Source of the DNA: Candidatus Nealsonbacteria bacterium
GTDB taxonomy: Bacteria; Patescibacteriota; Minisyncoccia; Minisyncoccales; JAGMDC01
Direction: 5' to 3'
DNA length: 37,591 bases
Assembly (NCBI GenBank): GCA_030643485.1
Contig: DAOWLG010000001.1
Coordinates: forward strand, 1 to 37,591
The notes under the pieces are model-generated. The model had not been told where the DNA came from, searched no databases, and saw only the letters and a program-made list of their open reading frames with translations. Shown here piece after piece: positions 144 through 33,988 of the stretch; position 1 is the stretch's first letter; every line of letters begins with the position of its first letter. Made by a program: the position numbers and the translations under genes.

Positions 144-695
144 CTAATAGCGAAGTGTGTGTATAGAATGGTTTCCTTTCCATTCAATACAATACGAAAA
201 TTGATCAAAATACCCCAAAAATCCATTATTTTTATTTAAAATTTGCCAAGAAAAAATATCTGATGTAAAAGTTTTTAAAATCGATCGGAGACCAAAATGT
301 AAATGCGCTCCTGTCGAAAATCCACTATTGCCGCTCCACCCTATACAATCCCCCATTTTCACAAAAATTCCTGAAAGATACCGCGCGCGACTTAAATGTG
401 CCAAACATGCTTCCAGTTTTCTTTCCGGTGAGCGTAGCTTGATATACAATCCATATCCTTTTTTTCCTTCATTTTTAACTTTCAAAAATCCTGAAAATGG
501 AGCAAAAACTGGCGTTCCTGTCGGAACTCCATAATCTAGCCCGTTGTGTCCTCGCATTCCCCATTGTCGATATATATCAATATTTTTGATATACAATTTT
601 TTCCCAAAAAGTTGTGATATTATTTTTCTTGATCTTTTTTGGAACCAGTCAGAATTTTTTAGAATTGCAAAATTTTGAATCGGTGAAATTATCAT
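144..695 (-). CDS. M23/LytM-family zinc metallopeptidase (peptidoglycan endopeptidase; candidate endolysin or virion lysin)
   Basis: 183 aa. HNGLDYGVPTGTPVFAPFSG and GNSGFSTGAHLHFGLR supply the HxxxD and HxH motifs of M23 peptidases. Last gene of the late block. Confidence 0.85.
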   Translation of the reverse strand: MIISPIQNFAILKNSDWFQKRSRKIISQLFGKKLYIKNIDIYRQWGMRGHNGLDYGVPTGTPVFAPFSGFLKVKNEGKKGYGLYIKLRSPERKLEACLAHLSRARYLSGIFVKMGDCIGWSGNSGFSTGAHLHFGLRSILKTFTSDIFSWQILNKNNGFLGYFDQFSYCIEWKGNHSIHTLRY

Positions 696-747
696 TTTTT
701 TAAAATTAATTTTTTCCTAGATTGATTATAAAACGTTTTTTTAAAAA

Positions 748-934
748 AGTAAAAAGGTAGGAAAGTAAGAAAGTAAGAAAGTAAGAAAAATGGAGAAGTA
801 AGAAAGTAAGAAAAATGGAGAAGTAAGAAAAATGGAGATTTCTAAATTTCCTACTTTTCAAAAAAAAGTGGGAAAATTCAAAATTTTTTCCCACTTTTTA
901 GGATTTTTTCCTACTTTTTAGGATTTTTTCCCAC
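748..934. repeat. Dense short-repeat array in a 526-bp non-coding gap (iteron-like)
   Basis: GTAAGA(AA) x6 at 765, 773, 781, 798, 806, 823. AAAAATGGAGA x3 at 786, 811, 828. GT(A/G)GGAAA at 757 and 868, with its complement TTTCC(T/C)AC at 847, 887, 907, 927. A 20-bp tandem unit ttttttcc(c/t)actttttagga at 884, 904, 924. Confidence 0.85.
860..894 (-). terminator. Rho-independent terminator downstream of the 1444-aa gene
   Basis: Minus strand reads GTGGGAAAA-AATTTTGAA-TTTTCCCAC followed by T8: a 9-bp perfect stem plus U-tract. Confidence 0.65.
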
Positions 935-4200: not shown

Positions 4201-5556
4201 GGCTTTTCTGGCGGCCTCTCTTTTTTTAAAATTTTCATTCATATATGCGATTGGGTCGAACTTTTTTCCTTCGTACACAATCAAAGCTTTTTCTTCTTCT
4301 CCCAAAGCCTTAAATTCGGCCAATCGACCTTCTTTAAATATACTTTCTCCATATTTTTCTTTCAAAAAAATAATTCCTTGTTCCCTAAAAATCCTATTGA
4401 AATCGGAATAAGAAATAGAATCAGGCGTGATATTTTCGACAGATTTAAAAATTATTTTTTTTTCGTTTTTGGTTAAATACCGATTAATTTGTTTACCAAA
4501 AACACTTTCAAAAACAAAATTGCCAGCCATTCCTGCAATTAAATTATTTATACCATACTCCTGTCCGGATATTTTACGTATTCCATATTCGGCCAATTCT
4601 TCATTCATTGGAAGCATACCAAATCTAAAAATTTTTGGATAAGTGTTTGCAAAACTGGTGGCTGTTTTACTCAAGAGAGTAACGCTTTTTATCATTTGTG
4701 CGCCTATAGAGTAGGCGGGGATACTCCCTACAACTTCACTAACAAAATCAATTATTCTAGCTTCGGTGGGACTTAATCTTTCGCCGTAATCAGGAATTTT
4801 TAAAATATCTTTGCCTGCTTGAACTTCATAGACAAATTTATCGCCTGCAACTCCTAGAGTTATCCCACGTTTTAAGCCTTCGGAAAACCTATTAATCCGT
4901 TCATCCCAAGCTGTTATTTTTTTGCCTGTTATTTTTCCTAAAGATTCAGTTAGACACGTTTCTGCTTTTTTAAGAAAAGTTTGAATATAAGACGTTTGCT
5001 GTTGTTTTTTAATTTTTTCTCTTATTTCGGGGGATTTTATTATTTCTTCAATTTGTTTTTCTTCTGGAAGACGCAAATTTTCGGAGAAATTTTTATTTCT
5101 TTTACTTCTAAGAAAAGCAGACGGATTTTTTTGAAAAGTATCTATATCGACAAACCCCCATTTTTTAGAAAGTTCTTTTTTTGCCATTTCTCGCGAAATT
5201 TGACGATAGGTCTCTTCATCCTGTTTTTTTATTTTTATTGCCTCATTTTCAGGAAGCTGTTGGATTGTTTCAAATTTATCAATTTTTTTGTCTGGCTCAA
5301 AAGGTGTAAGAATAAGAGTTTGCCCATCACCAGTCATAGCCTCATCACCAAACAGATCATGAACGGATATATCAGTATCCCATTTTGGCGTATTATCGCC
5401 AAAAATTACTTTATTTTCGTCTTCCGATAATCCGAATAAATCACCTTCTATTAATTCAACCCCGCCTTGTTCATCTTGTTCTTTCAGGAATTCTGTACCT
5501 ATTTTAATCCCTTTTTTGGCTTTCCTAGCTAATTCTGTGAAGTTTGAAAATGGCAT
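1222..5556 (-). CDS. Giant virion-associated protein of unknown function (possible internal core/ejection protein)
   Basis: 1444-aa uninterrupted ORF. I recognised no catalytic motif. Its position after the tail genes and the 666-aa lysin-bearing protein resembles the gp15-gp16 order of T7-like podoviruses. Confidence 0.45.
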   Translation of the reverse strand: MPFSNFTELARKAKKGIKIGTEFLKEQDEQGGVELIEGDLFGLSEDENKVIFGDNTPKWDTDISVHDLFGDEAMTGDGQTLILTPFEPDKKIDKFETIQQLPENEAIKIKKQDEETYRQISREMAKKELSKKWGFVDIDTFQKNPSAFLRSKRNKNFSENLRLPEEKQIEEIIKSPEIREKIKKQQQTSYIQTFLKKAETCLTESLGKITGKKITAWDERINRFSEGLKRGITLGVAGDKFVYEVQAGKDILKIPDYGERLSPTEARIIDFVSEVVGSIPAYSIGAQMIKSVTLLSKTATSFANTYPKIFRFGMLPMNEELAEYGIRKISGQEYGINNLIAGMAGNFVFESVFGKQINRYLTKNEKKIIFKSVENITPDSISYSDFNRIFREQGIIFLKEKYGESIFKEGRLAEFKALGEEEKALIVYEGKKFDPIAYMNENFKKREAARKADKGDIGRIQNVVEELKTVFVDANARLDDRLATHAKKYQYSLLPSANIHDQIDMVYRAPALADEFIQRSKLPRVLQTVDNIDHFDDYLVARQAIDLNIKGFETGRNIEKDKLLLAAVGNKYEESAKAVTEFSHHLLDYCVESDLIDADLAKKLKEIYPNYIPMNRIFNELEKSGKFFGGKSVASLSKQNIVQKLVGSKREIESPTGSLIEKTLAAFVQGEKNKAAKMINAYKNLPNNPFKLEPLRTKSDYDKRISIFSDLKESKKIKNDLLKIVKKSKKEINILNKELSNIKYEGKKLLKKKYKESETIAKTKDFDPLSVSLSQDDLKIKFLDEFLQSKDFLKLKKQLVAKNEKLAPFLDSLEKTSLELEILNQARRAKYDKALAFSDTKAGQKSTMNFLNQGFKEIWGIDPDIARVVKVLKIQQFGVIGRVLTLPVRIAKLGITGINPAFAMANFVKDQFTAIAFSDATMRTINPVNYVESIFATFQKNDLYRDMVRHGGGGTFFDTSRNVGRKTVESIRAEKNLLSKIKHKITTPKEWLSTVENVIGFTEEATRVNQFNVTKKMLLSQGRTLKDANILAARAAREVTVNFYRRGEWGTVINGGWLYLNAGIQGGRTLARNLKNKPKITSLKILTSLYTPLAIATMWNLKDPLRKIAYEDIEEWEKENNIIIVPPNPQKDENGKWNILKIPIPQGLNSLTFPVRRGIEEGYGLHPLTMKEIASSFIGAVSPLEATTSSLGSALIPQIIKPSVESLAGYDFFREKKLLSEYKEKLDPELQSYKSTSETAKKIAVILGEKGVAPVKVEHLLKQTFGEVGLLGLRAADTLLAELGAIPDDHLGGRGLAESIMRRFTKAYGGKTERLEIEETEKYERKSLSTAKREKDRAKKIFAKLSEFPEFYKEREMEKIKEKDENLYEKIKEVEEKEEKKMSYSEMRIKGLPIYNKTRAKRIYEIFKDLPKKEKQTKFEDFKKKGIITKEIWNQILELAKKTE

Positions 5557-5697: not shown

Positions 5698-7698
5698 TTA
5701 GTCAAACTTGCCTAGATCTAAGCTCCATTCATCCTCTATATCTTCTATCTTTCCTACCCCTACTTTATACCCTGTATCAGCAGACCGTAGAGCCTTTTCC
5801 AGTTTTTCTTCTTCCAGTTTTTCCTTTTCCATTCTTTTTGCTATTTCTGCTTTTTCGTCTCTTGACAACCCCAAATTTCCCAAACTTGCGTCTTCATCTT
5901 TTTTAAGTCGTTTTATTGCTATTTTGATTAAATCTTCATCTACAATTTCTTGTTCTTTTTTTACGGAAGGAGAAGGAATATCAATACCCCCTTTTAGTTT
6001 GTCAGGTACAAAAAACCCGACAATACTTTTTTCTAGGCCTTTTGATAAATTCATAGGCCTAAAATCAATTTTCTGACTTATTCCATCGGAATTGGAATCA
6101 TTGATAAACATTTGGCCTTTAGCGTTTCGTCTCACAATCCCCACATGTCCATTTGTAGCGTTTGGCCCTGTTCTAATATCATAAACGGCAAGAGCTCCGT
6201 CAACAGGATTTTGAAGAAAATCATCAATAGAAACGTTAATATATTTAGTTTTGCTTTCTGTCGAATCTGCAAAGATACGTCCCATTCCCAATTTTTCAGT
6301 ATAATTGTTTCCAAAATATCCACATTCACCACCTTTTTTTCCTATACTTTTGTGTTGAAGTTCTAACCATTCTTGACCGCTTTTAGCTTCCAAACTATCC
6401 ATATTATAAATTCCATTATATCCTTTGGCTCCTGAAGTTTTTCCCATTCCCAGCTCTATAGTTTTAAGCTGAATATTTTCAGGATCATTAGGGTCTCTGG
6501 TAACGATATCCAAATATGTTTGGCCTGTGGGGTCTTGTCGAGTTTTTTGGGAGATAATATCAAATTTAACATTACGTTTTTCTGATCCCACAAACATATT
6601 TTCAACTTTAAGCGCGCCTGTTGATTTATCTCTCATCACAAAATCAATATACTTATTTCCGCCTTGGTCTGTCCTAGCATTATGTGAAAGTATATCAGTG
6701 TCGGGGTATTTACTACGAATTAATGAAAGCGAATCTAATGGCATACCAGCTTGTGTTTCAAGTTTATTTATTACAAGTTTTTGTTCATCGGTTAGATCGG
6801 AAAAAGCCAATCCGCCTTGAGTAATAAGATTATTATAAACTTGCAAATTAGCTCTGGCATTATCAATTTGACGGTCTTTTACAATATCTTCATCTTTTTT
6901 CATCATTCTTTCAGCTTGATCTTCCTGACGAAAAAGATTAATCATTTGTAAATTTCGGGAGAATTCATTTTGATATTGTCTTTGAGAAGTTTCAAAATCA
7001 GATTTGGTAAAACTCATAATCTGTTCAATCACTCCATACTTGGTTTGAAGTTGATTAACAGCGACGGTTTTTTGTCGATTTATAAAATCAAGCCTGCGTC
7101 TATAATCTTTTTCACGCTGACCTATCCTTCCAGCAATAACGCCCATACTGGCCAGCGCTCCCTCTTCTCTATCGACAATATCCCTAAATTCAGCTTTTAA
7201 AGATTCTTCATCAGATTTAATTAAATTCAATTCGTCTTCAAGCGACTCAACGCCTTTTTCTTCTCTAAGTTTTCTATATTGTTCGGCCAATGATGAAAAC
7301 TTGGGTGGCTCTAATACTTTTTGTTTTGAAATTAATTTATTAATCTTGGTTTTTGTTGGAGGCGCTGTTTTCCTTGTTTCATCTTGAAAAAACTCGGATT
7401 GTTTTTGATTAAGAAATTCGTTAGCCTCATCAATATCTGTCAATTTAGGGATAGTCCCCACGCCAGCCACGCCAGCAACTAGTTCTTTTTCAGGCAAACC
7501 AAATTTAGTATAAGTGCCTGTTTCGGCATATTCTTCTTTAGCTTTTCTGTACTCGCGAATATCAGAAAAATCTTTTGCTTGAGGCAAAGTTTCAATAAGT
7601 TCGCGATCTTTAATATTGCTGGCAATACCTCCCACAATTTCAGGTTTTTCTCCTTTCTTTAAATATCTATCGTTCTTTTTTTGTTTTAAAATTTTCAT
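5698..7698 (-). CDS. Virion protein with a CHAP/NlpC-P60-type cysteine peptidase domain (cell-wall-degrading internal or tail protein)
   Basis: 666 aa. Residues about 440-565 (nt 6004-6381) read KKGGECGYFGNNY ... NGHVGIVRR ... INDSNSDG, the Cys-His-polar arrangement of CHAP amidases. Long coiled-coil-like N-terminal part. Confidence 0.7.
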   Translation of the reverse strand: MKILKQKKNDRYLKKGEKPEIVGGIASNIKDRELIETLPQAKDFSDIREYRKAKEEYAETGTYTKFGLPEKELVAGVAGVGTIPKLTDIDEANEFLNQKQSEFFQDETRKTAPPTKTKINKLISKQKVLEPPKFSSLAEQYRKLREEKGVESLEDELNLIKSDEESLKAEFRDIVDREEGALASMGVIAGRIGQREKDYRRRLDFINRQKTVAVNQLQTKYGVIEQIMSFTKSDFETSQRQYQNEFSRNLQMINLFRQEDQAERMMKKDEDIVKDRQIDNARANLQVYNNLITQGGLAFSDLTDEQKLVINKLETQAGMPLDSLSLIRSKYPDTDILSHNARTDQGGNKYIDFVMRDKSTGALKVENMFVGSEKRNVKFDIISQKTRQDPTGQTYLDIVTRDPNDPENIQLKTIELGMGKTSGAKGYNGIYNMDSLEAKSGQEWLELQHKSIGKKGGECGYFGNNYTEKLGMGRIFADSTESKTKYINVSIDDFLQNPVDGALAVYDIRTGPNATNGHVGIVRRNAKGQMFINDSNSDGISQKIDFRPMNLSKGLEKSIVGFFVPDKLKGGIDIPSPSVKKEQEIVDEDLIKIAIKRLKKDEDASLGNLGLSRDEKAEIAKRMEKEKLEEEKLEKALRSADTGYKVGVGKIEDIEDEWSLDLGKFD

Positions 7699-14669: not shown

Positions 14670-15443
14670 TTAAGATCCCCGACGATTTACTTGATTTAGT
14701 TCTTTTGCGAACTCTTGATCAGACATTTTAGAAAAATCTTTTTTTATTGAGCCGTCAGAACGAGCTGATGTGCCGCCTGATTGTGATTCTTTAGCTTGTT
14801 TATCAGCATTTCTTGCTAGATGTGCGCCAATTTGTAATAAATCTTTGCCTGCGGCTGAATATGCAAGCTGCTCAATGGGAAGATTTTTATAAACGGGGTG
14901 TTTCCCCCATTTAATTATTTTTTTGTAGAAGGGTTTAAAAATAGGATTTTCTCCGACAAAATCTTTTGTGTCTTTTTCAAGTTGATTTATTTCTGAATTT
15001 TCTTGAGTTTGGCGTATCAGATCAAACTGGTCGCCATATTTATTTAATATATATTCATCAATCCGCTCTTTTTCTTTCTCTTCCAAACTTAAATTTGGGT
15101 TTTCTTCTCCCCGTCCTTCCAATTTAGCAATTTCTGCGTCCAATTCGGCTAGTTTTTTTGTTCCTGTTTTATTCTTCAATTTCTCTATTTTAGCTTGTTT
15201 TCGCTCAATTATATAAGCTAAATTATTTTTTCTTGTTGGAGGTTCTTCTCCTTCAGGGGGTGTTTGTTCTCCTTCAGGGGGTGTTTGTTCTCCTTCAGGG
15301 GGTGTTTGTTCTTCTCCTTCGGGGGGTGTTTGTTTTTCTCCTTCGGGGGGTGTTTGTTCTTCTCCTTCGGGGGGTGTTTGTTCTTCTCCTTCGGGGGGTG
15401 TTTGTTCTTCTCCTTCGGGGGGTGTTTGTCCTGGTTCTAACAT
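14670..15443 (-). CDS. Scaffolding protein with N-terminal QTPPEGE(E) tandem repeats
   Basis: 257 aa, charged and helical, located between portal and capsid genes. Eight or nine Pro/Glu-rich repeats at the N-terminus. Confidence 0.6.
   Translation of the reverse strand: MLEPGQTPPEGEEQTPPEGEEQTPPEGEEQTPPEGEKQTPPEGEEQTPPEGEQTPPEGEQTPPEGEEPPTRKNNLAYIIERKQAKIEKLKNKTGTKKLAELDAEIAKLEGRGEENPNLSLEEKEKERIDEYILNKYGDQFDLIRQTQENSEINQLEKDTKDFVGENPIFKPFYKKIIKWGKHPVYKNLPIEQLAYSAAGKDLLQIGAHLARNADKQAKESQSGGTSARSDGSIKKDFSKMSDQEFAKELNQVNRRGS
15241..15433. repeat. 21/24-bp coding tandem repeat (ggggg(g)tgtttgttct(tct)ccttc)
   Basis: About nine near-identical units visible in the sequence; they encode the QTPPEGE(E) repeats. 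Confidence 0.9.
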
Positions 15444-22832: not shown

Positions 22833-23603
22833 TTATTCATAACACAAAAACAAAAAAAAGGAAAATATTATTTTTTTTTTGTGTTTTTGAGTTTTCAAAA
22901 ACTCTTTCTTGTAAAAATCACAGCAAGAAAAAAAACTTGTAATATTTGTAGGATTATCGATTTTTAAAGTTTTATTGATTATTTTTTCAGAATATTTTTG
23001 AAAAACAAAGCTGGTTAAACCTTCTGGAGATTTTACTCCTTCTTTTTCTGAAAACCATTTTTTTAAAACTTCAAAATTTTTTCTTTGGGGGGTAAGGGGG
23101 GGTTCTTTAATATTCTTTATATTCTTATACCCTTCTTGAATGTGTTCACTTTTTGTTCGTTTGTTGTTCACTAGTTGTTCAGTCTTTTGATATTTGTTCC
23201 AATTCACTATATGTATAAGCCTAAATTTATTAAAAGTTTGTTGTTCAATTTTTGTTCGTTTGTTGTTCACTAGTTGTTCACTTTTTTGATATTTTTTCCA
23301 ATTAACTATATGTATAAGCCTAAATTTATTGAAAGTTTGTTGTTCAATTTGTTGTTCGATTTCGAGGTATTTCAAAATTCTTTCAATTTTACTCTCGTTA
23401 ATACCTGAAATTTTAGCTAATTTTTTTCGTCCAGTTATAAATTCACCTAGCCTTAATTTATTTTTTTTACTATTAAATATGAAGAATTGTTTTTTTTGGT
23501 GATTGGCTAGTATTAGTAAAAGAAGCCACAAAGCTAAATATTCTGGTTTTTTAGAAATTACATTTGTTAAAATTTTACGATGTAGTTTAATCCAGCCTTG
23601 CAT
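22833..23603 (-). CDS. Phage replisome-organizer / replication-initiator-like winged-helix protein
   Basis: 256 aa. MQGWIKLHRKIL ... GEFITGRKKLAKISGINESKIERILKYLEIEQQIEQQT ... RLIHIVNW.KYQ resembles the N-terminal domain of Firmicutes-phage replisome organizers. It contains a duplicated 33-aa segment. Confidence 0.6.
   Translation of the reverse strand: MQGWIKLHRKILTNVISKKPEYLALWLLLLILANHQKKQFFIFNSKKNKLRLGEFITGRKKLAKISGINESKIERILKYLEIEQQIEQQTFNKFRLIHIVNWKKYQKSEQLVNNKRTKIEQQTFNKFRLIHIVNWNKYQKTEQLVNNKRTKSEHIQEGYKNIKNIKEPPLTPQRKNFEVLKKWFSEKEGVKSPEGLTSFVFQKYSEKIINKTLKIDNPTNITSFFSCCDFYKKEFLKTQKHKKKIIFSFFLFLCYE
23151..23348. repeat. 2 x 99-bp tandem duplication inside the replisome-organizer-like gene, rich in TTGTTCA (TGAACAA) iterons
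   Basis: Unit starts at 23151 and 23250, with only a few mismatches. Encodes EQQTFNKFRLIHIVNW(K/N)KYQK(S/T)EQLVNNKRTK twice. Confidence 0.9.
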
Positions 23604-27293: not shown

Positions 27294-27444
27294 TATTGAT
27301 TTTATTTAGAAAATTTTTAAATTGTGTTGGTTTAAAATTTCCACAAACAGTACAAGGTTCACATACCCAAAACTCCCCCGTTAATCCAATTTTTTTAGCA
27401 CAATCTTCACAAATTGCATAAGTTTCTTGAGCTATTTTTTCCAT
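27280..27444 (-). CDS. Small zinc-ribbon protein
   Basis: Starts at the internal Met MEKIAQETYAICEDCAKKIGLTGEFWVCEPCTVCGNF; has CxxC and CxxCxxC motifs. Confidence 0.4.
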   Translation of the reverse strand: MEKIAQETYAICEDCAKKIGLTGEFWVCEPCTVCGNFKPTQFKNFLNKINNEKP

Positions 27445-28171
27445 TATCAAAAATATTAAAAAATAATTTAGCTTCATCTCTGATTTCCCAATTTTCATCT
27501 GTTTTTGTTTTTTCTGGAAACCCTAAAGTTCTAAAAGCCTCAAGCCTAATTGTGCAATCTTCATCTTTTTTTGCTTTTTCCGTAAATCCTAAATTTCGAT
27601 AAGCTGCTAATCTGATATCAGTGTCTTTATTTGATTTTGCTTTTTCATCAAAACCTAAAATTCTAAAAGCTTCAAATCTGATTTTATAAAAAACATCGGA
27701 TTTTGCTTTTTTCGTAAAGCCTAAAATTCTAAATGCTTCGAGTCTAATTCCCCAATATTCATCTTTTTTAGCTTCTTCGGTAAAGCCTAAAATTCTAAAA
27801 GCTTCAAATCTAATATCAATGTCTTTATCTGATTTTGCTTTTTCATCAAACCCTAAAATCCGAAAAGCTTCAAATCTAATATCAGTGTCTTTATCTGATT
27901 TTGCTTTTTCATCAAAACCTAAAATTCTAAAAGCTTCAAGCCTAATTGTGCAATCTTCATCTTTTTTTGCTTTTTCCGTAAATCCTAAATTTCGATAAGC
28001 TGCTAATCTAATTTCCCAATTTTCATCTTTTTTTGCTTTTTCTGTAAAACCTAAATTTTTAAAAGCTTCAAATCTGATTTCATCGTTTTTATCTTTTTTT
28101 GCTTCTTTTGGAAAAAGGCTTATACAAGCTAGTTTTTCTTGAAAAGTTAAATCTTCATATTTTTTTTTCAT
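27407..28171 (-). CDS. Tandem 22-aa repeat protein (HEAT/PBS-lyase-like), paralog A
   Basis: 254 aa with about nine units of consensus KAK(K/S)D(E/K)(D/N)x(E/D)IR(L/F)EAFR(I/N)LGF(T/D)E. The D..xIRxxAxxxLG core resembles PBS-lyase HEAT-like repeats, but the period is 22 aa. Confidence 0.6.
   Translation of the reverse strand: MKKKYEDLTFQEKLACISLFPKEAKKDKNDEIRFEAFKNLGFTEKAKKDENWEIRLAAYRNLGFTEKAKKDEDCTIRLEAFRILGFDEKAKSDKDTDIRFEAFRILGFDEKAKSDKDIDIRFEAFRILGFTEEAKKDEYWGIRLEAFRILGFTKKAKSDVFYKIRFEAFRILGFDEKAKSNKDTDIRLAAYRNLGFTEKAKKDEDCTIRLEAFRTLGFPEKTKTDENWEIRDEAKLFFNIFDNGKNSSRNLCNL
27541..28009. repeat. 66-bp coding tandem repeats, including an exact 73-bp duplicate
   Basis: 27541-27613 is identical to 27937-28009, an offset of 396 bp (6 x 66). 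Confidence 0.9.
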
Positions 28172-32435: not shown

Positions 32436-32454
32436 GGGGGCTATTTTATAGTCC
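32436..32454 (-). promoter_or_regulatory. Conserved bulged hairpin upstream of the HTH gene 31915-32400 (copy B)
   Basis: Minus strand GG-A-CTAT-AAA-ATAG-CC(CCC), 35 nt before the ATG. Related to the copy at 34630-34654. Confidence 0.45.
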
Positions 32455-32794
32455 TTTTTCCGTTTTTTGTATAATTATAAAATCCAATTATTCCGATTTC
32501 AGTAGTCAATGGTCGTATATCTATTTTTCGCTTACCTTTGCTGTTAGAATCAAAAATATAATGCGTATTGTCAACAATTTTGACAATTCCCACGTGGCCG
32601 TATATAGATTTAGTTTGATTGTATATTGCTATACAGCCGTGGCAAGCTTTATAAGTATTGATTAATTTTTTTTTGGATTCAAAACTGTCTTTGATTGGCC
32701 TTGTTTCAAGACCTTTTTTTTTAAGAAAATTGTTGACAAATGTTCCGCAATGCCCACCATAATTTCCTTTTTTAATCAGAAATTCAGTTTTTTT
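32441..32794 (-). pseudogene. CHAP-type peptidoglycan hydrolase domain in a start-less reading frame (the -1 frame relative to ORF 32776-33090): frameshift-dependent gene or pseudogene
   Basis: Hand translation KKTEFLIKKGNYGGHCGTFVNNFLKKKGLETRPIKDSFESKKKLINTYKACHGCIAIYNQTKSIYGHVGIVKIVDNTHYIFDSNSKGKRKIDIRPLTTEIGIIGFYNYTKNGKRTIK. No ATG/GTG/TTG precedes the catalytic Cys. Motif-for-motif parallel to the CHAP domain at 6004-6381. Confidence 0.7.
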
Positions 32795-33090
32795 TTAATC
32801 GGGCATTCCGCGTCCTGCCCCCATTTTTCTTTGGATTTTTTTTGGCAAGCTTTTCTTAAATTTTCATTTTCTTTTTCCGTTTTTTGTTGTTCGTTCTCTA
32901 GTTCAAGCCATTTCTTAGAATTATCTTGAATTTTTTGGATTATTTGGTCAACGGTTAATTTTGATTTTCCGCCTGTTAATGCTGGAAGTAAGAGCAGACC
33001 AAGCCCCATAATCACGGTTAGCATTACCGCTCCGCCAATTTGGAGAAATGAAAAATTGTCTGATGATGTTTTTTGTGTTTCTTCATTCAT
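32776..33090 (-). CDS. N-terminal membrane-anchor / linker ORF, probable 5' part of a frameshifted signal-anchored CHAP lysin
   Basis: 104 aa. Gly/Ala-rich hydrophobic helix FLQIGGAVMLTVIMGLGLLLLPALTGG, then a coiled linker. Ends in KKK encoded by an A9 run (plus-strand T9 at 32788-32796). Confidence 0.65.
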   Translation of the reverse strand: MNEETQKTSSDNFSFLQIGGAVMLTVIMGLGLLLLPALTGGKSKLTVDQIIQKIQDNSKKWLELENEQQKTEKENENLRKACQKKSKEKWGQDAECPIKKKLNF

Positions 33091-33355: not shown

Positions 33356-33988
33356 TTATATTTGATATTTTTTGCAAAACGCTTGGATATAATCGGCTTT
33401 TTCTTGGTATTGTTTTGTCCCGATTTTTCTAGCTATTTTTTTAATTTTGGAAAATAAGTCCGCCTCATCTTGAATCCAATACCATTCCTTTTTCAACGCT
33501 TTCTTCGTAAATCCTAAAATCCGATAAGCTTCAAGTCTGATTATGCAATCTTCATCTCTTTTTGCTTCTTCGGTGAATCCTAAATTTCTAAAAGCTTCTA
33601 ATCTGATACTAGGGTCTTCATCTGTTTTAGATTTTTCATTAAATCCCAAATTCCTAAATGCTTCTAACCGAATCTTGTAAAGAACGTCTCTTTTTGCTTC
33701 TTCGGTGAATCCTAAAACTCGATAAGCTGCGAGTCTGATTTCCCAATTTTTATCTTTTTTTGCTTTTTTATCAAACTCTAAATTTCTAAATGCTTCTAAC
33801 CGAATTTTATAAAAAACATCGGATTTTGCTTTTTTCGTAAAGCCTAAAATTCTAAAAGCTTCTAATCGAACTTCATCGTTTTTATCAATTTTAGCTAATT
33901 TCGGAAAAAATTTTATTCCAGCCATTTTTTGAAAGCGGTCTAAAGAAAACCAAAATTTTTGTTTTTCGGTTGGGAATAATACGCACAT
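33356..33988 (-). CDS. Tandem 22-aa repeat protein (HEAT/PBS-lyase-like), paralog B
   Basis: 210 aa with about seven units of the same consensus as 27407-28171. An exact 53-bp stretch (33804-33856) is shared with 27681-27733. Confidence 0.6.
   Translation of the reverse strand: MCVLFPTEKQKFWFSLDRFQKMAGIKFFPKLAKIDKNDEVRLEAFRILGFTKKAKSDVFYKIRLEAFRNLEFDKKAKKDKNWEIRLAAYRVLGFTEEAKRDVLYKIRLEAFRNLGFNEKSKTDEDPSIRLEAFRNLGFTEEAKRDEDCIIRLEAYRILGFTKKALKKEWYWIQDEADLFSKIKKIARKIGTKQYQEKADYIQAFCKKYQI

Follow-up and report, generated by a model that had tools for sequence, protein, structure and literature searches.

A conserved run of nine adenines as the probable recoding site between a membrane anchor and a CHAP wall-hydrolase domain in an uncultured tailed phage

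A split gene for a membrane-anchored CHAP protein

The 37,591-nucleotide contig DAOWLG010000001.1 (GenBank assembly GCA_030643485.1, filed under Candidatus Nealsonbacteria bacterium), analysed here as a whole and called the window, is the genome of an uncultured tailed phage with a G+C content of about 33% and nearly every gene on the minus strand. We describe in it a split gene. A 104-residue membrane-anchor open reading frame (ORF) ends shortly after a run of nine adenines (A9), and the -1 frame behind the run carries a CHAP domain that has no start codon of its own. We propose that this gene undergoes programmed recoding at A9, by RNA-polymerase slippage or by ribosomal frameshifting, and would yield both an anchor-only and an anchor-CHAP product. 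We put the probability of this reading, by either route, at about 0.8.

Under standard decoding, the gene would give a bitopic membrane protein of 104 aa with a transmembrane (TM) helix, a second helix of about 45 residues and two conserved cysteines, terminated three codons past the run. In a fraction of the expression events, the frame would move by -1 at the run, and translation would continue through a flexible linker into the CHAP domain, giving an anchor-helix-CHAP protein of 216 aa. The route that we favour is slippage of the RNA polymerase with insertion of one A, which would turn the A9 of the DNA into A10 in the mRNA. A tandem -1 slip of the ribosome on A_AAA_AAA would give the same protein, and the two processes may act together; slippage seems to us somewhat the more probable. 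The protein would be oriented N-in/C-out with the enzyme domain facing the cell wall, since the enzyme must reach the wall and since more positive charge precedes the helix in most relatives. The short and long forms could co-assemble through their shared helix, and the rate of the shift would keep the enzyme-bearing form rare, that is, at a low and fixed dose of a dangerous enzyme.

The coordinates of the split gene are given in Table 1. The sense strand at the junction reads ...GAA TGC CCG ATT AAA AAA AAA CTG AAT TTC TGA, and the short protein ends in ...CPIKKKLNF. The -1 frame reads TAA AAA AAA ACT GAA TTT..., and translation of 32441-32797 (minus strand) runs from stop to stop as KKTEFLIKKGNYGGHCGTF...RTIK. 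No ATG, GTG or TTG stands in this frame before the catalytic cysteine; the first of them is a GTG within the YGHVGIV motif at 32593. One extra A, or a ribosomal -1 slip, would join the two frames as ...CPIKKK-TEFLIKK... (predicted junction peptide ...CPIKKKTEFLIK), and the conceptual fusion is 216 aa long (101 + 115). An earlier annotation of this DNA from its letters, the sequence-only reading, had described the anchor ORF, the A9 run, the open -1 frame and two further A9 runs inside that frame. All of them are present where it had placed them, and translation bore out its account of a start-less CHAP frame closed by a TAA at the run; its estimate of about 214 aa for the fusion was slightly too short. 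Decoding of TGA as an amino acid (genetic code 4 or 25) was rejected: read-through would add 32 unrelated residues before the next stop (ORF 32662-32760), and the relatives have TAA at this position.

Table 1. Features of the split gene (all on the minus strand; positions are those of the window)
Feature	Position	Strand	Remarks
Zero-frame ORF	32776..33090	-	104 aa; short anchor-only product under standard decoding; ends ...WGQDAECPIKKKLNF-TGA; P0001 in the public protein collection
Predicted N-terminal transmembrane helix, about residues 15-38 (FLQIGGAVMLTVIMGLGLLLLPAL)	32977..33048	-	AlphaFold helices 15-33 and 35-38; hydrophobic segment there in all five homologues
Predicted long single coiled-coil-like helix, residues 47-90	32821..32952	-	AlphaFold, pLDDT 74-89
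TAA closing the -1 frame upstream	32795..32797	-	overlaps the first A's of the run; same TAA in L001/L002
A9 run, proposed recoding site	32788..32796 (T9 on the plus strand)	-	three codons before the stop of the anchor ORF; zero frame ATT AAA AAA AAA CTG
-1-frame ORF, predicted CHAP cysteine-peptidase/amidase domain	32441..32794, including the TAG stop 32441-32443	-	lacks a start codon upstream of the catalytic Cys
Catalytic Cys (TGC), fusion residue 115	32747..32749	-	invariant alignment column
Second A9 run, L-K-K-K-G, inside the CHAP frame	32714..32722	-	lineage-specific; the L001 orthologue has GCT GAA AAA GGT
Third A9 run, S-K-K-K-L, inside the CHAP frame	32666..32674	-	lineage-specific; the L001 orthologue has AGT AAG AAG GCG
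Catalytic His (CAC), fusion residue 166	32594..32596	-	invariant alignment column
Polar third residue, N183	32543-32545	-	invariant alignment column

Conservation of the A9 run in the relatives

The relatives of the split gene were collected by an exhaustive HMMER search with the fusion against 1.84 billion representative proteins. The 19 matches are of four kinds. One is P0001, the 104-aa product of the window itself. Four are anchor-only proteins, 99-106 aa in length, whose alignments cover residues 1-104 (P0002, P0004, P0005 and P0009). A single uninterrupted protein has 224 aa (P0003; residues 14-209 aligned, E=6e-12). The rest are CHAP domains of large, presumably virion-associated proteins, together with a few short CHAP-only proteins. 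The four anchor-only relatives (30-48% protein identity) all stop directly past W-G-x-x-x-x-C-P-[IVL]-K-K. This belongs to a conserved C...WG....CP motif that follows the long helix and contains two invariant cysteines, C82 and C96. Across the five homologues, the columns W61, C82, W90, G91, C96, P97, K99 and K100 of the anchor are invariant. A weak, sub-threshold match of the anchor to DivIC reflects only the shape of a TM segment followed by a helix.

In the DNA of the relatives, the anchor ORF has exactly A9 at this point in every lineage, and a long ORF in the -1 frame follows. All nine contigs, from five lineages, have this length, and A8 or A10 was found in none. Three further assemblies, representing at least two biosamples, contain the locus of the window with 100% identity, A9 included; the compared stretch is 1001 nt long, or 938 nt on the shortest contig. 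The contigs come from ENA (two biosamples), Logan, JGI and NCBI and were produced by different pipelines. A one-base assembly error is the usual first suspicion for genes split at a homopolymer. Here the identical A9 in contigs of all these sources speaks against it, as do seven other runs of 9-10 A's that sit within intact ORFs of the window (three of them in the ORF for a 1444-aa protein), and we regard such an error as most improbable. It could also be thought that the homopolymer is phase-variable at the DNA level, with A9 ("off") and A10 ("on") genotypes, as homopolymers this long are prone to replication slippage (PMC1088944). However, the nine contigs of the five lineages are all at the "off" length, and the exhaustive HMMER search of the 1.84 billion representatives found no in-frame protein of the A9 clade. 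Phase variation is therefore quite unlikely.

The closest relatives, L001 and L002, come from two unrelated metagenomes and mirror the window: their junction reads ATT AAA AAA AAA CTA AAT TTT TAA, a TAA stands at the start of the run in the -1 frame, and the CHAP domain follows. Their -1 frame likewise lacks a start codon before the catalytic cysteine. Since this frame is closed by TAA and start-less in both the window and L001/L002, the CHAP domain there would be expressible only by a shift, which supports the claim of the sequence-only reading that it can be reached only through a -1 event on A9 from the anchor ORF. In L003, L004 and L005, the run lies one base earlier in codon phase (GTA or CTA, then AAA AAA AAC), and the ORF behind it again occupies the -1 frame. 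The domain that this ORF encodes is not CHAP in these lineages. L003 and L004 share a domain of an "AWAET..." type, and L005 has a third type with an "ENG...GFCQIH" motif. In Pfam, PHROGs and PDB sequence searches, the non-CHAP domains gave only a sub-threshold match to Glucosaminidase (L004, E=0.017); our guess is that they, too, are wall hydrolases. In all five lineages, the downstream frame can be read without interruption as far as its stop or as far as the contig extends. Thus the codon phase differs between the sub-groups, the length is always nine and the frame is always -1, which points to selection on the length of the run.

Further searches did not enlarge the family. A word-indexed protein search with the fusion gave no match, and a profile of the five anchors recovered the same five only. 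A search with a degenerate DNA pattern of the junction gave 10 matches in IMG/VR and at least 120 in metagenomes, all of which proved to be chance matches after profile filtering. Profile-guided scans found no anchor in IMG/VR or in GTDB genomes, and no anchor-CHAP fusion in IMG/VR.

The CHAP domain of the -1 frame

The fusion passes the Pfam cut-off for CHAP (PF05257) with 28.5 bits against 26, as the sequence-only reading had anticipated for the shifted frame, and the L001 orthologue scores 35.6 bits. We scored the invariance of C115, H166 and N183 over the window, L001, P0003, the 666-aa protein encoded elsewhere in the window and P0010; all three columns are invariant. The CHAP domains of the fusion and the 666-aa protein are paralogous (38% identity, E=4e-14). 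The AlphaFold model of the fusion has a mean pLDDT of 72 and consists of a TM helix (residues 15-33), a helix (47-90), a linker and a confident CHAP domain. The low-confidence linker (residues 99-110) coincides with the recoding site. The CHAP region, with pLDDT mostly of 80-93, adopts a papain-like alpha+beta fold in this model, and the top Foldseek matches of the model were PcsB, the phage lysin PlyPy, a Thermus thermophilus NlpC/P60 protein and LytE (probabilities 0.91-1.00, although with weak E-values of 1e-3 to 0.09). As judged from profile and model, the -1 frame is predicted to encode an intact papain-like CHAP domain of the NlpC/P60 superfamily.

The shifted CHAP frame is under purifying selection. 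Between the window and L001, it retains 60% protein identity at saturated synonymous sites (pS 0.70), with a dN/dS of 0.16; the anchor has a higher dN/dS of 0.34. This bears on the idea of a decaying gene, in which an ancestral anchor-CHAP gene was disabled by a frameshift mutation and the anchor alone has remained in use. The uninterrupted protein P0003 has the same architecture, so the fused state could be ancestral. Yet the CHAP frame is intact in two lineages with saturated synonymous sites and a dN/dS below that of the anchor, none of the catalytic residues varies, and the downstream frame is open in all five lineages, which makes decay very unlikely. Thus, among the five explanations that had been listed for this locus from its letters, assembly error, pseudogene and phase variation have become unlikely, and transcriptional slippage and/or ribosomal frameshifting are left.

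Run length, composition and the route of the frame change

Runs of nine A's are not rare in this genome. The plus strand of the window contains ten T9 runs and one T10, and 91% of the lysine codons are AAA. We compared the ORFs with shuffles that preserve the encoded protein by exchanging synonymous codons. Runs of at least nine A's occur seven times in the other ORFs, against 11.6 ± 1.8 in the shuffles (P=0.016), and are thus depleted; runs of at least seven or at least eight A's show no depletion. Lys-Lys-Lys triplets are written as AAA throughout in 5 of 13 cases, against an expected 75% (binomial P=0.005). Together with the conservation of this run in every relative, the depletion of long runs indicates that the A9 of the split gene is not an effect of composition. 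Examples of the other ORF-internal runs are the A10 at 22871-22880 and the A9 runs at 1282-1290, 1413-1421 and 4455-4463.

Several observations bear on whether the polymerase or the ribosome shifts. A purely ribosomal mechanism, that is, programmed -1 frameshifting on A_AAA_AAA with no part played by the RNA polymerase, is a sub-case of programmed recoding, and its probability overlaps with that of recoding as a whole. Both sub-groups have a correctly phased heptamer, which is A_AAA_AAA in the window and L001 and either A_AAA_AAA or A_AAA_AAC in L003-L005, and the product would be identical. Both A_AAA_AAA and A_AAA_AAC are among the shift-site heptamers in a recoding review (PMC5009743). However, the usual stimulators of ribosomal -1 frameshifting are absent. 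No downstream stem-loop or pseudoknot was predicted: in each of the five lineages, the 80 nt that begin with the run show no more folding potential than shuffled sequences (z from -0.86 to +0.2). Likewise, no Shine-Dalgarno-like element lies at an effective distance: a GGGGAG about 20-26 nt upstream is too far away and encodes the conserved W-G-E. Moreover, seven A's suffice for the heptamer, yet nine are kept in all lineages whatever the phase. We hold a ribosomal mechanism without any slippage to be possible but doubtful. Polymerase slippage is favoured because the run is always nine in spite of the change of phase, because the ribosomal stimulators are missing, and because runs of at least nine A's are depleted in the other ORFs and Lys-Lys-Lys triplets avoid the all-AAA form. 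It is also favoured by the value of nine itself, since A/T runs of at least 9 nt are the threshold reported by Baranov et al. for selection against slippage in many bacteria, and since the dnaX gene of T. thermophilus uses an A9 run (PMC1088944).

A short G-C hairpin is possible 5' of the run in all lineages (32797-32825 of the window, minus strand). It pairs the GGGG of the Trp-Gly codons with the CCC of the Cys-Pro codons and ends 2-4 nt before A9. The hairpin is significant against shuffles in L004 (z -2.9) and L001 (z -2.0), not in the other three lineages, and its bases are fixed by the protein motif. The geometry of such a hairpin followed by A9 is reminiscent of a terminator hairpin. 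In the window, a larger fold across the run pairs AAUGCCC with GGGCAUU (z -3.15).

Weight and meaning of the proposed recoding

On comparative grounds, the case for recoding appears well supported, in a family that is very small. Several points weigh against it. The family comprises five lineages, mainly on short metagenomic contigs, and the shared ancestry of these lineages means that the conservation of A9 does not represent five independent events. Part of this conservation comes at low cost, since K-K is conserved in the protein and 91% of the lysine codons are AAA. In L003-L005, an ATG stands in the -1 frame 9-35 nt upstream of the run, and gene callers made separate overlapping genes there. 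This ATG arises incidentally from the conserved GAA-TGY or TGG-GG codons; nevertheless, the downstream ORF could be initiated independently in these three lineages. The two additional A9 runs in the CHAP frame of this phage would cause slippage losses of their own. The shift and its efficiency are deduced from sequence.

If the proposed recoding is true, it would add a new functional class to programmed slippage. A phage could in this way produce a dangerous enzyme, tethered to the membrane, in a low and constant amount beside an excess of its anchor. We tentatively consider a wider idea, less likely than the recoding itself, that A9 is a conserved "recoding joint" by which interchangeable wall-degrading modules, namely CHAP in two lineages and two further domains in the other three, are joined to one shared helical scaffold in the membrane. 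The stoichiometry would then be set by the slip rate, and the short form, being abundant, would oligomerise and would regulate or position the rare form that carries the enzyme. If so, this would be an undescribed way to dose or time a lethal wall hydrolase, apart from the holin-endolysin cassette. There is also a consequence for annotation. Gene callers placed no gene over the CHAP domain in the window and L001 lineages and chose wrong starts for the domain ORFs elsewhere in the family, so that such enzymes escape both protein databases and lysin mining.

Uninterrupted proteins of the same layout

The sequence-only reading had suggested a search of the relatives for a single ORF. None was found in the A9 clade, and the uninterrupted proteins that we found lie outside it. 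P0003 (224 aa, on three contigs) has a TM helix, a helical spacer and a CHAP domain related to that of the window, with no interruption; its junction, CCA AAA AAA GTA, contains an in-frame A7. P0021 (223 aa, on seven contigs) likewise runs uninterrupted through a TM helix and a helical region with two cysteines into a domain of the L003 type (52% identical). Its junction has no A-run, and the conceptual L003 fusion would be of the same length (99 + 124 = 223 aa). The AlphaFold model of P0021 has a pLDDT of 47. The N-terminal parts of P0003, P0021 and a more distant locus, L146, are not detectably homologous to the anchor of the A9 clade. For this reason, P0003 and P0021 support the architecture, not a common descent of the anchor.

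The idea of one original gene thus changes its basis. It had been argued from the 666-aa protein, whose paralogy turned out to hold for the CHAP domains only; support comes instead from P0003, which has the same architecture without interruption. The "WLEL" that had been taken to link the anchor ORF to the 666-aa protein is a chance match of four residues (pairwise E=1.4), and it lies about 40 residues from the junction, not about 12.

Two more distant loci from IMG/VR, L145 and L146, have an ORF with a TM segment plus helix, followed at -1 by a domain of the L003 type, without an A-run. In L146 (2960-2990), the anchor ORF ends ACT TCT TTT TGA, with a TTG that overlaps the stop (TTGA); this could be a shifty-stop site T_TTT_TGA or a case of TTGA translational coupling. 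In L145 (2846-2895), the two ORFs overlap by 22 nt containing TCT TTT CAG TAG, which could be a frameshift site or could again serve translational coupling. In the phage of P0003, the gene that follows codes for a protein with a 3D domain (PF06725), which is also a wall-associated module (L006 5109-5366, L007 4372-4629, L008 1322-1579).

L145 and L146 also bear on a reading in which CHAP is made as a separate protein, through non-canonical initiation or termination-reinitiation near the anchor stop (for example, at the CTG or ATT of ...TTT CTG ATT AAA...), so that two polypeptides arise as from a holin-endolysin pair. The CTG of the window does overlap the TGA stop (CTGA), a TTG start is available in the domain ORFs of L145 and L146, and a TTG stands just before the conserved domain in L003 and L004. 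But the near-cognate start is not conserved, the CTG and ATT of the window being TTA and ATC in L001/L002, and a start at this place is only about 10 codons from the catalytic cysteine. A domain with neither a start nor a signal could not get to the cell wall, the strict retention of A9 would be left without an explanation, and uninterrupted proteins of the fused architecture exist. Separate synthesis of CHAP is thus unlikely, and we return to programmed recoding as the preferred reading.

Comparison with known systems

Recoding at homopolymers is familiar from dnaX, insertion sequence (IS) transposases, secretion-system genes and phage tail chaperones. In T. thermophilus dnaX, Shigella mxiE and Citrobacter rodentium tssM1, as in the split gene, a homopolymer of at least nine A's lies in the coding region; there, standard decoding gives one product, and an inserted A leads to a second one with a shared N-terminus. 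In tssM1, an A11 run with 20-25% slippage gives the long form, and both isoforms are needed (PMC4256274). As proposed here, the longer product of tssM1 and mxiE requires the slip, and in tssM1 the ratio of the isoforms matters; tssM1 is the closest functional parallel. The split gene differs from these slippage genes in that it would encode a membrane-anchored wall hydrolase of a phage, that its slippage is predicted from sequence, and that the added C-terminal module varies by lineage.

Phage genes with programmed -1 ribosomal frameshifting include the lambda G/GT tail chaperone and T7 10A/10B; the E. coli dnaX gene shifts on A_AAA_AAG. Like the split gene, the phage genes carry a slippery heptamer near the end of the short ORF, and the -1 extension fixes the ratio of short to long product. 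In contrast to them, the split gene has neither a stimulatory structure nor a Shine-Dalgarno-like element, and it is the run length, not the heptamer, that is conserved.

With respect to architecture, the signal-anchor-release (SAR) endolysins, such as P1 Lyz and R of phage 21, come to mind. They resemble the fusion in the N-terminal hydrophobic segment that precedes a wall-degrading domain with no evident cleavable signal peptide, and the segment of the window is fairly Gly-rich, as in SAR endolysins. The fusion had accordingly been described as a SAR-type endolysin. We do not retain this assignment: unlike in SAR endolysins, a helix of about 45 residues and a linker separate the anchor from the enzyme, the enzyme is a CHAP domain and not a lysozyme, and the anchors of relatives are strongly hydrophobic, those of L003 and L005 being rich in Phe/Leu, not in Gly/Ala.

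The best structural match of the modelled fusion is PcsB of Streptococcus pneumoniae (PDB 4cgk; Foldseek probability 0.99). A profile match to PcsB spans the helix and CHAP of the fusion but is weak and not significant (E=0.07). PcsB resembles the fusion in its layout, with a helical stalk leading to a CHAP wall hydrolase at the C-terminus, which acts on the outer side of the membrane. Unlike the fusion, it is secreted, is held by FtsEX, has no TM anchor of its own and is encoded by a single ORF with no recoding.

Two isoforms from one lysin gene are known as well. Some endolysins form them from internal translation starts, as in staphylococcal phage 2638A (PMC12203907). As in the split gene, one gene gives two isoforms that share a module, and the lysin isoforms there associate. 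However, in the 2638A type an internal start yields a short form that consists of the C-terminal wall-binding part, whereas here the short form would be the N-terminal anchor, with the enzyme added optionally through a change of frame. Full-text literature searches and the 2016 recoding review (PMC5009743) yielded no example of recoding in a wall hydrolase or endolysin. Thus the mechanism is known, and its use in a phage wall-hydrolase gene appears to be undescribed.

The phage genome and its other wall hydrolases

The window encodes the large terminase, portal, capsid and tail genes, the 666-aa CHAP-domain protein and an M23 peptidase. The split gene sits amid early or replication-type genes, among them a helix-turn-helix (HTH) protein and a PD-(D/E)XK nuclease, and the gene order around it is kept in L001. 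The M23 peptidase gene (144-695, minus strand; Pfam 65.7 bits) lies at the downstream end of the structural module, at the far end of the genome from the split gene. Directly 5' of it, a 62-aa strongly hydrophobic ORF with a GTG start (706-894, minus strand) contains the internal repeat HFSYF..FLTFLL twice. These two genes may form a candidate holin and endolysin cassette. Because this candidate lysis pair is located elsewhere in the genome, it is doubtful that the split gene encodes the main endolysin. The 666-aa CHAP protein (5698-7698, minus strand), whose gene adjoins that of the 1444-aa giant protein, is probably a virion-associated lysin. Together with the recoded CHAP protein and the M23 peptidase, it would bring the number of wall hydrolases encoded by this phage to three.

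A Shine-Dalgarno-like motif was found in none of the 37 genes of the whole window within 25 nt upstream of the ORF starts, and the leaders are A/T-rich, suggesting that translation in the host does not depend on Shine-Dalgarno initiation. The window contains no tRNA genes. Neither the locus nor 25 kb of the window nor the fusion protein had a BLAST match in 50,697 phage records, and the terminase is nearest to that of uncultured spring-water phages, to which it is only 29% identical.

The genome also encodes repetitive proteins. A scaffold-like protein encoded just upstream of the capsid gene (14670-15443, minus strand) begins with about eight tandem copies of PPEGEEQT. A 256-aa protein (22833-23603, minus strand) has a near-exact internal duplication, with EQQTFNKFRLIHIVNW[KN]KYQK[ST]EQLVNNKRTK occurring twice. 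Finally, the early region encodes two HEAT-repeat proteins (33356-33988 and 27407-28171, both minus strand) with repeated units of the form IRLEAFRNLGF..EAK.D, which is unusual for a small phage.

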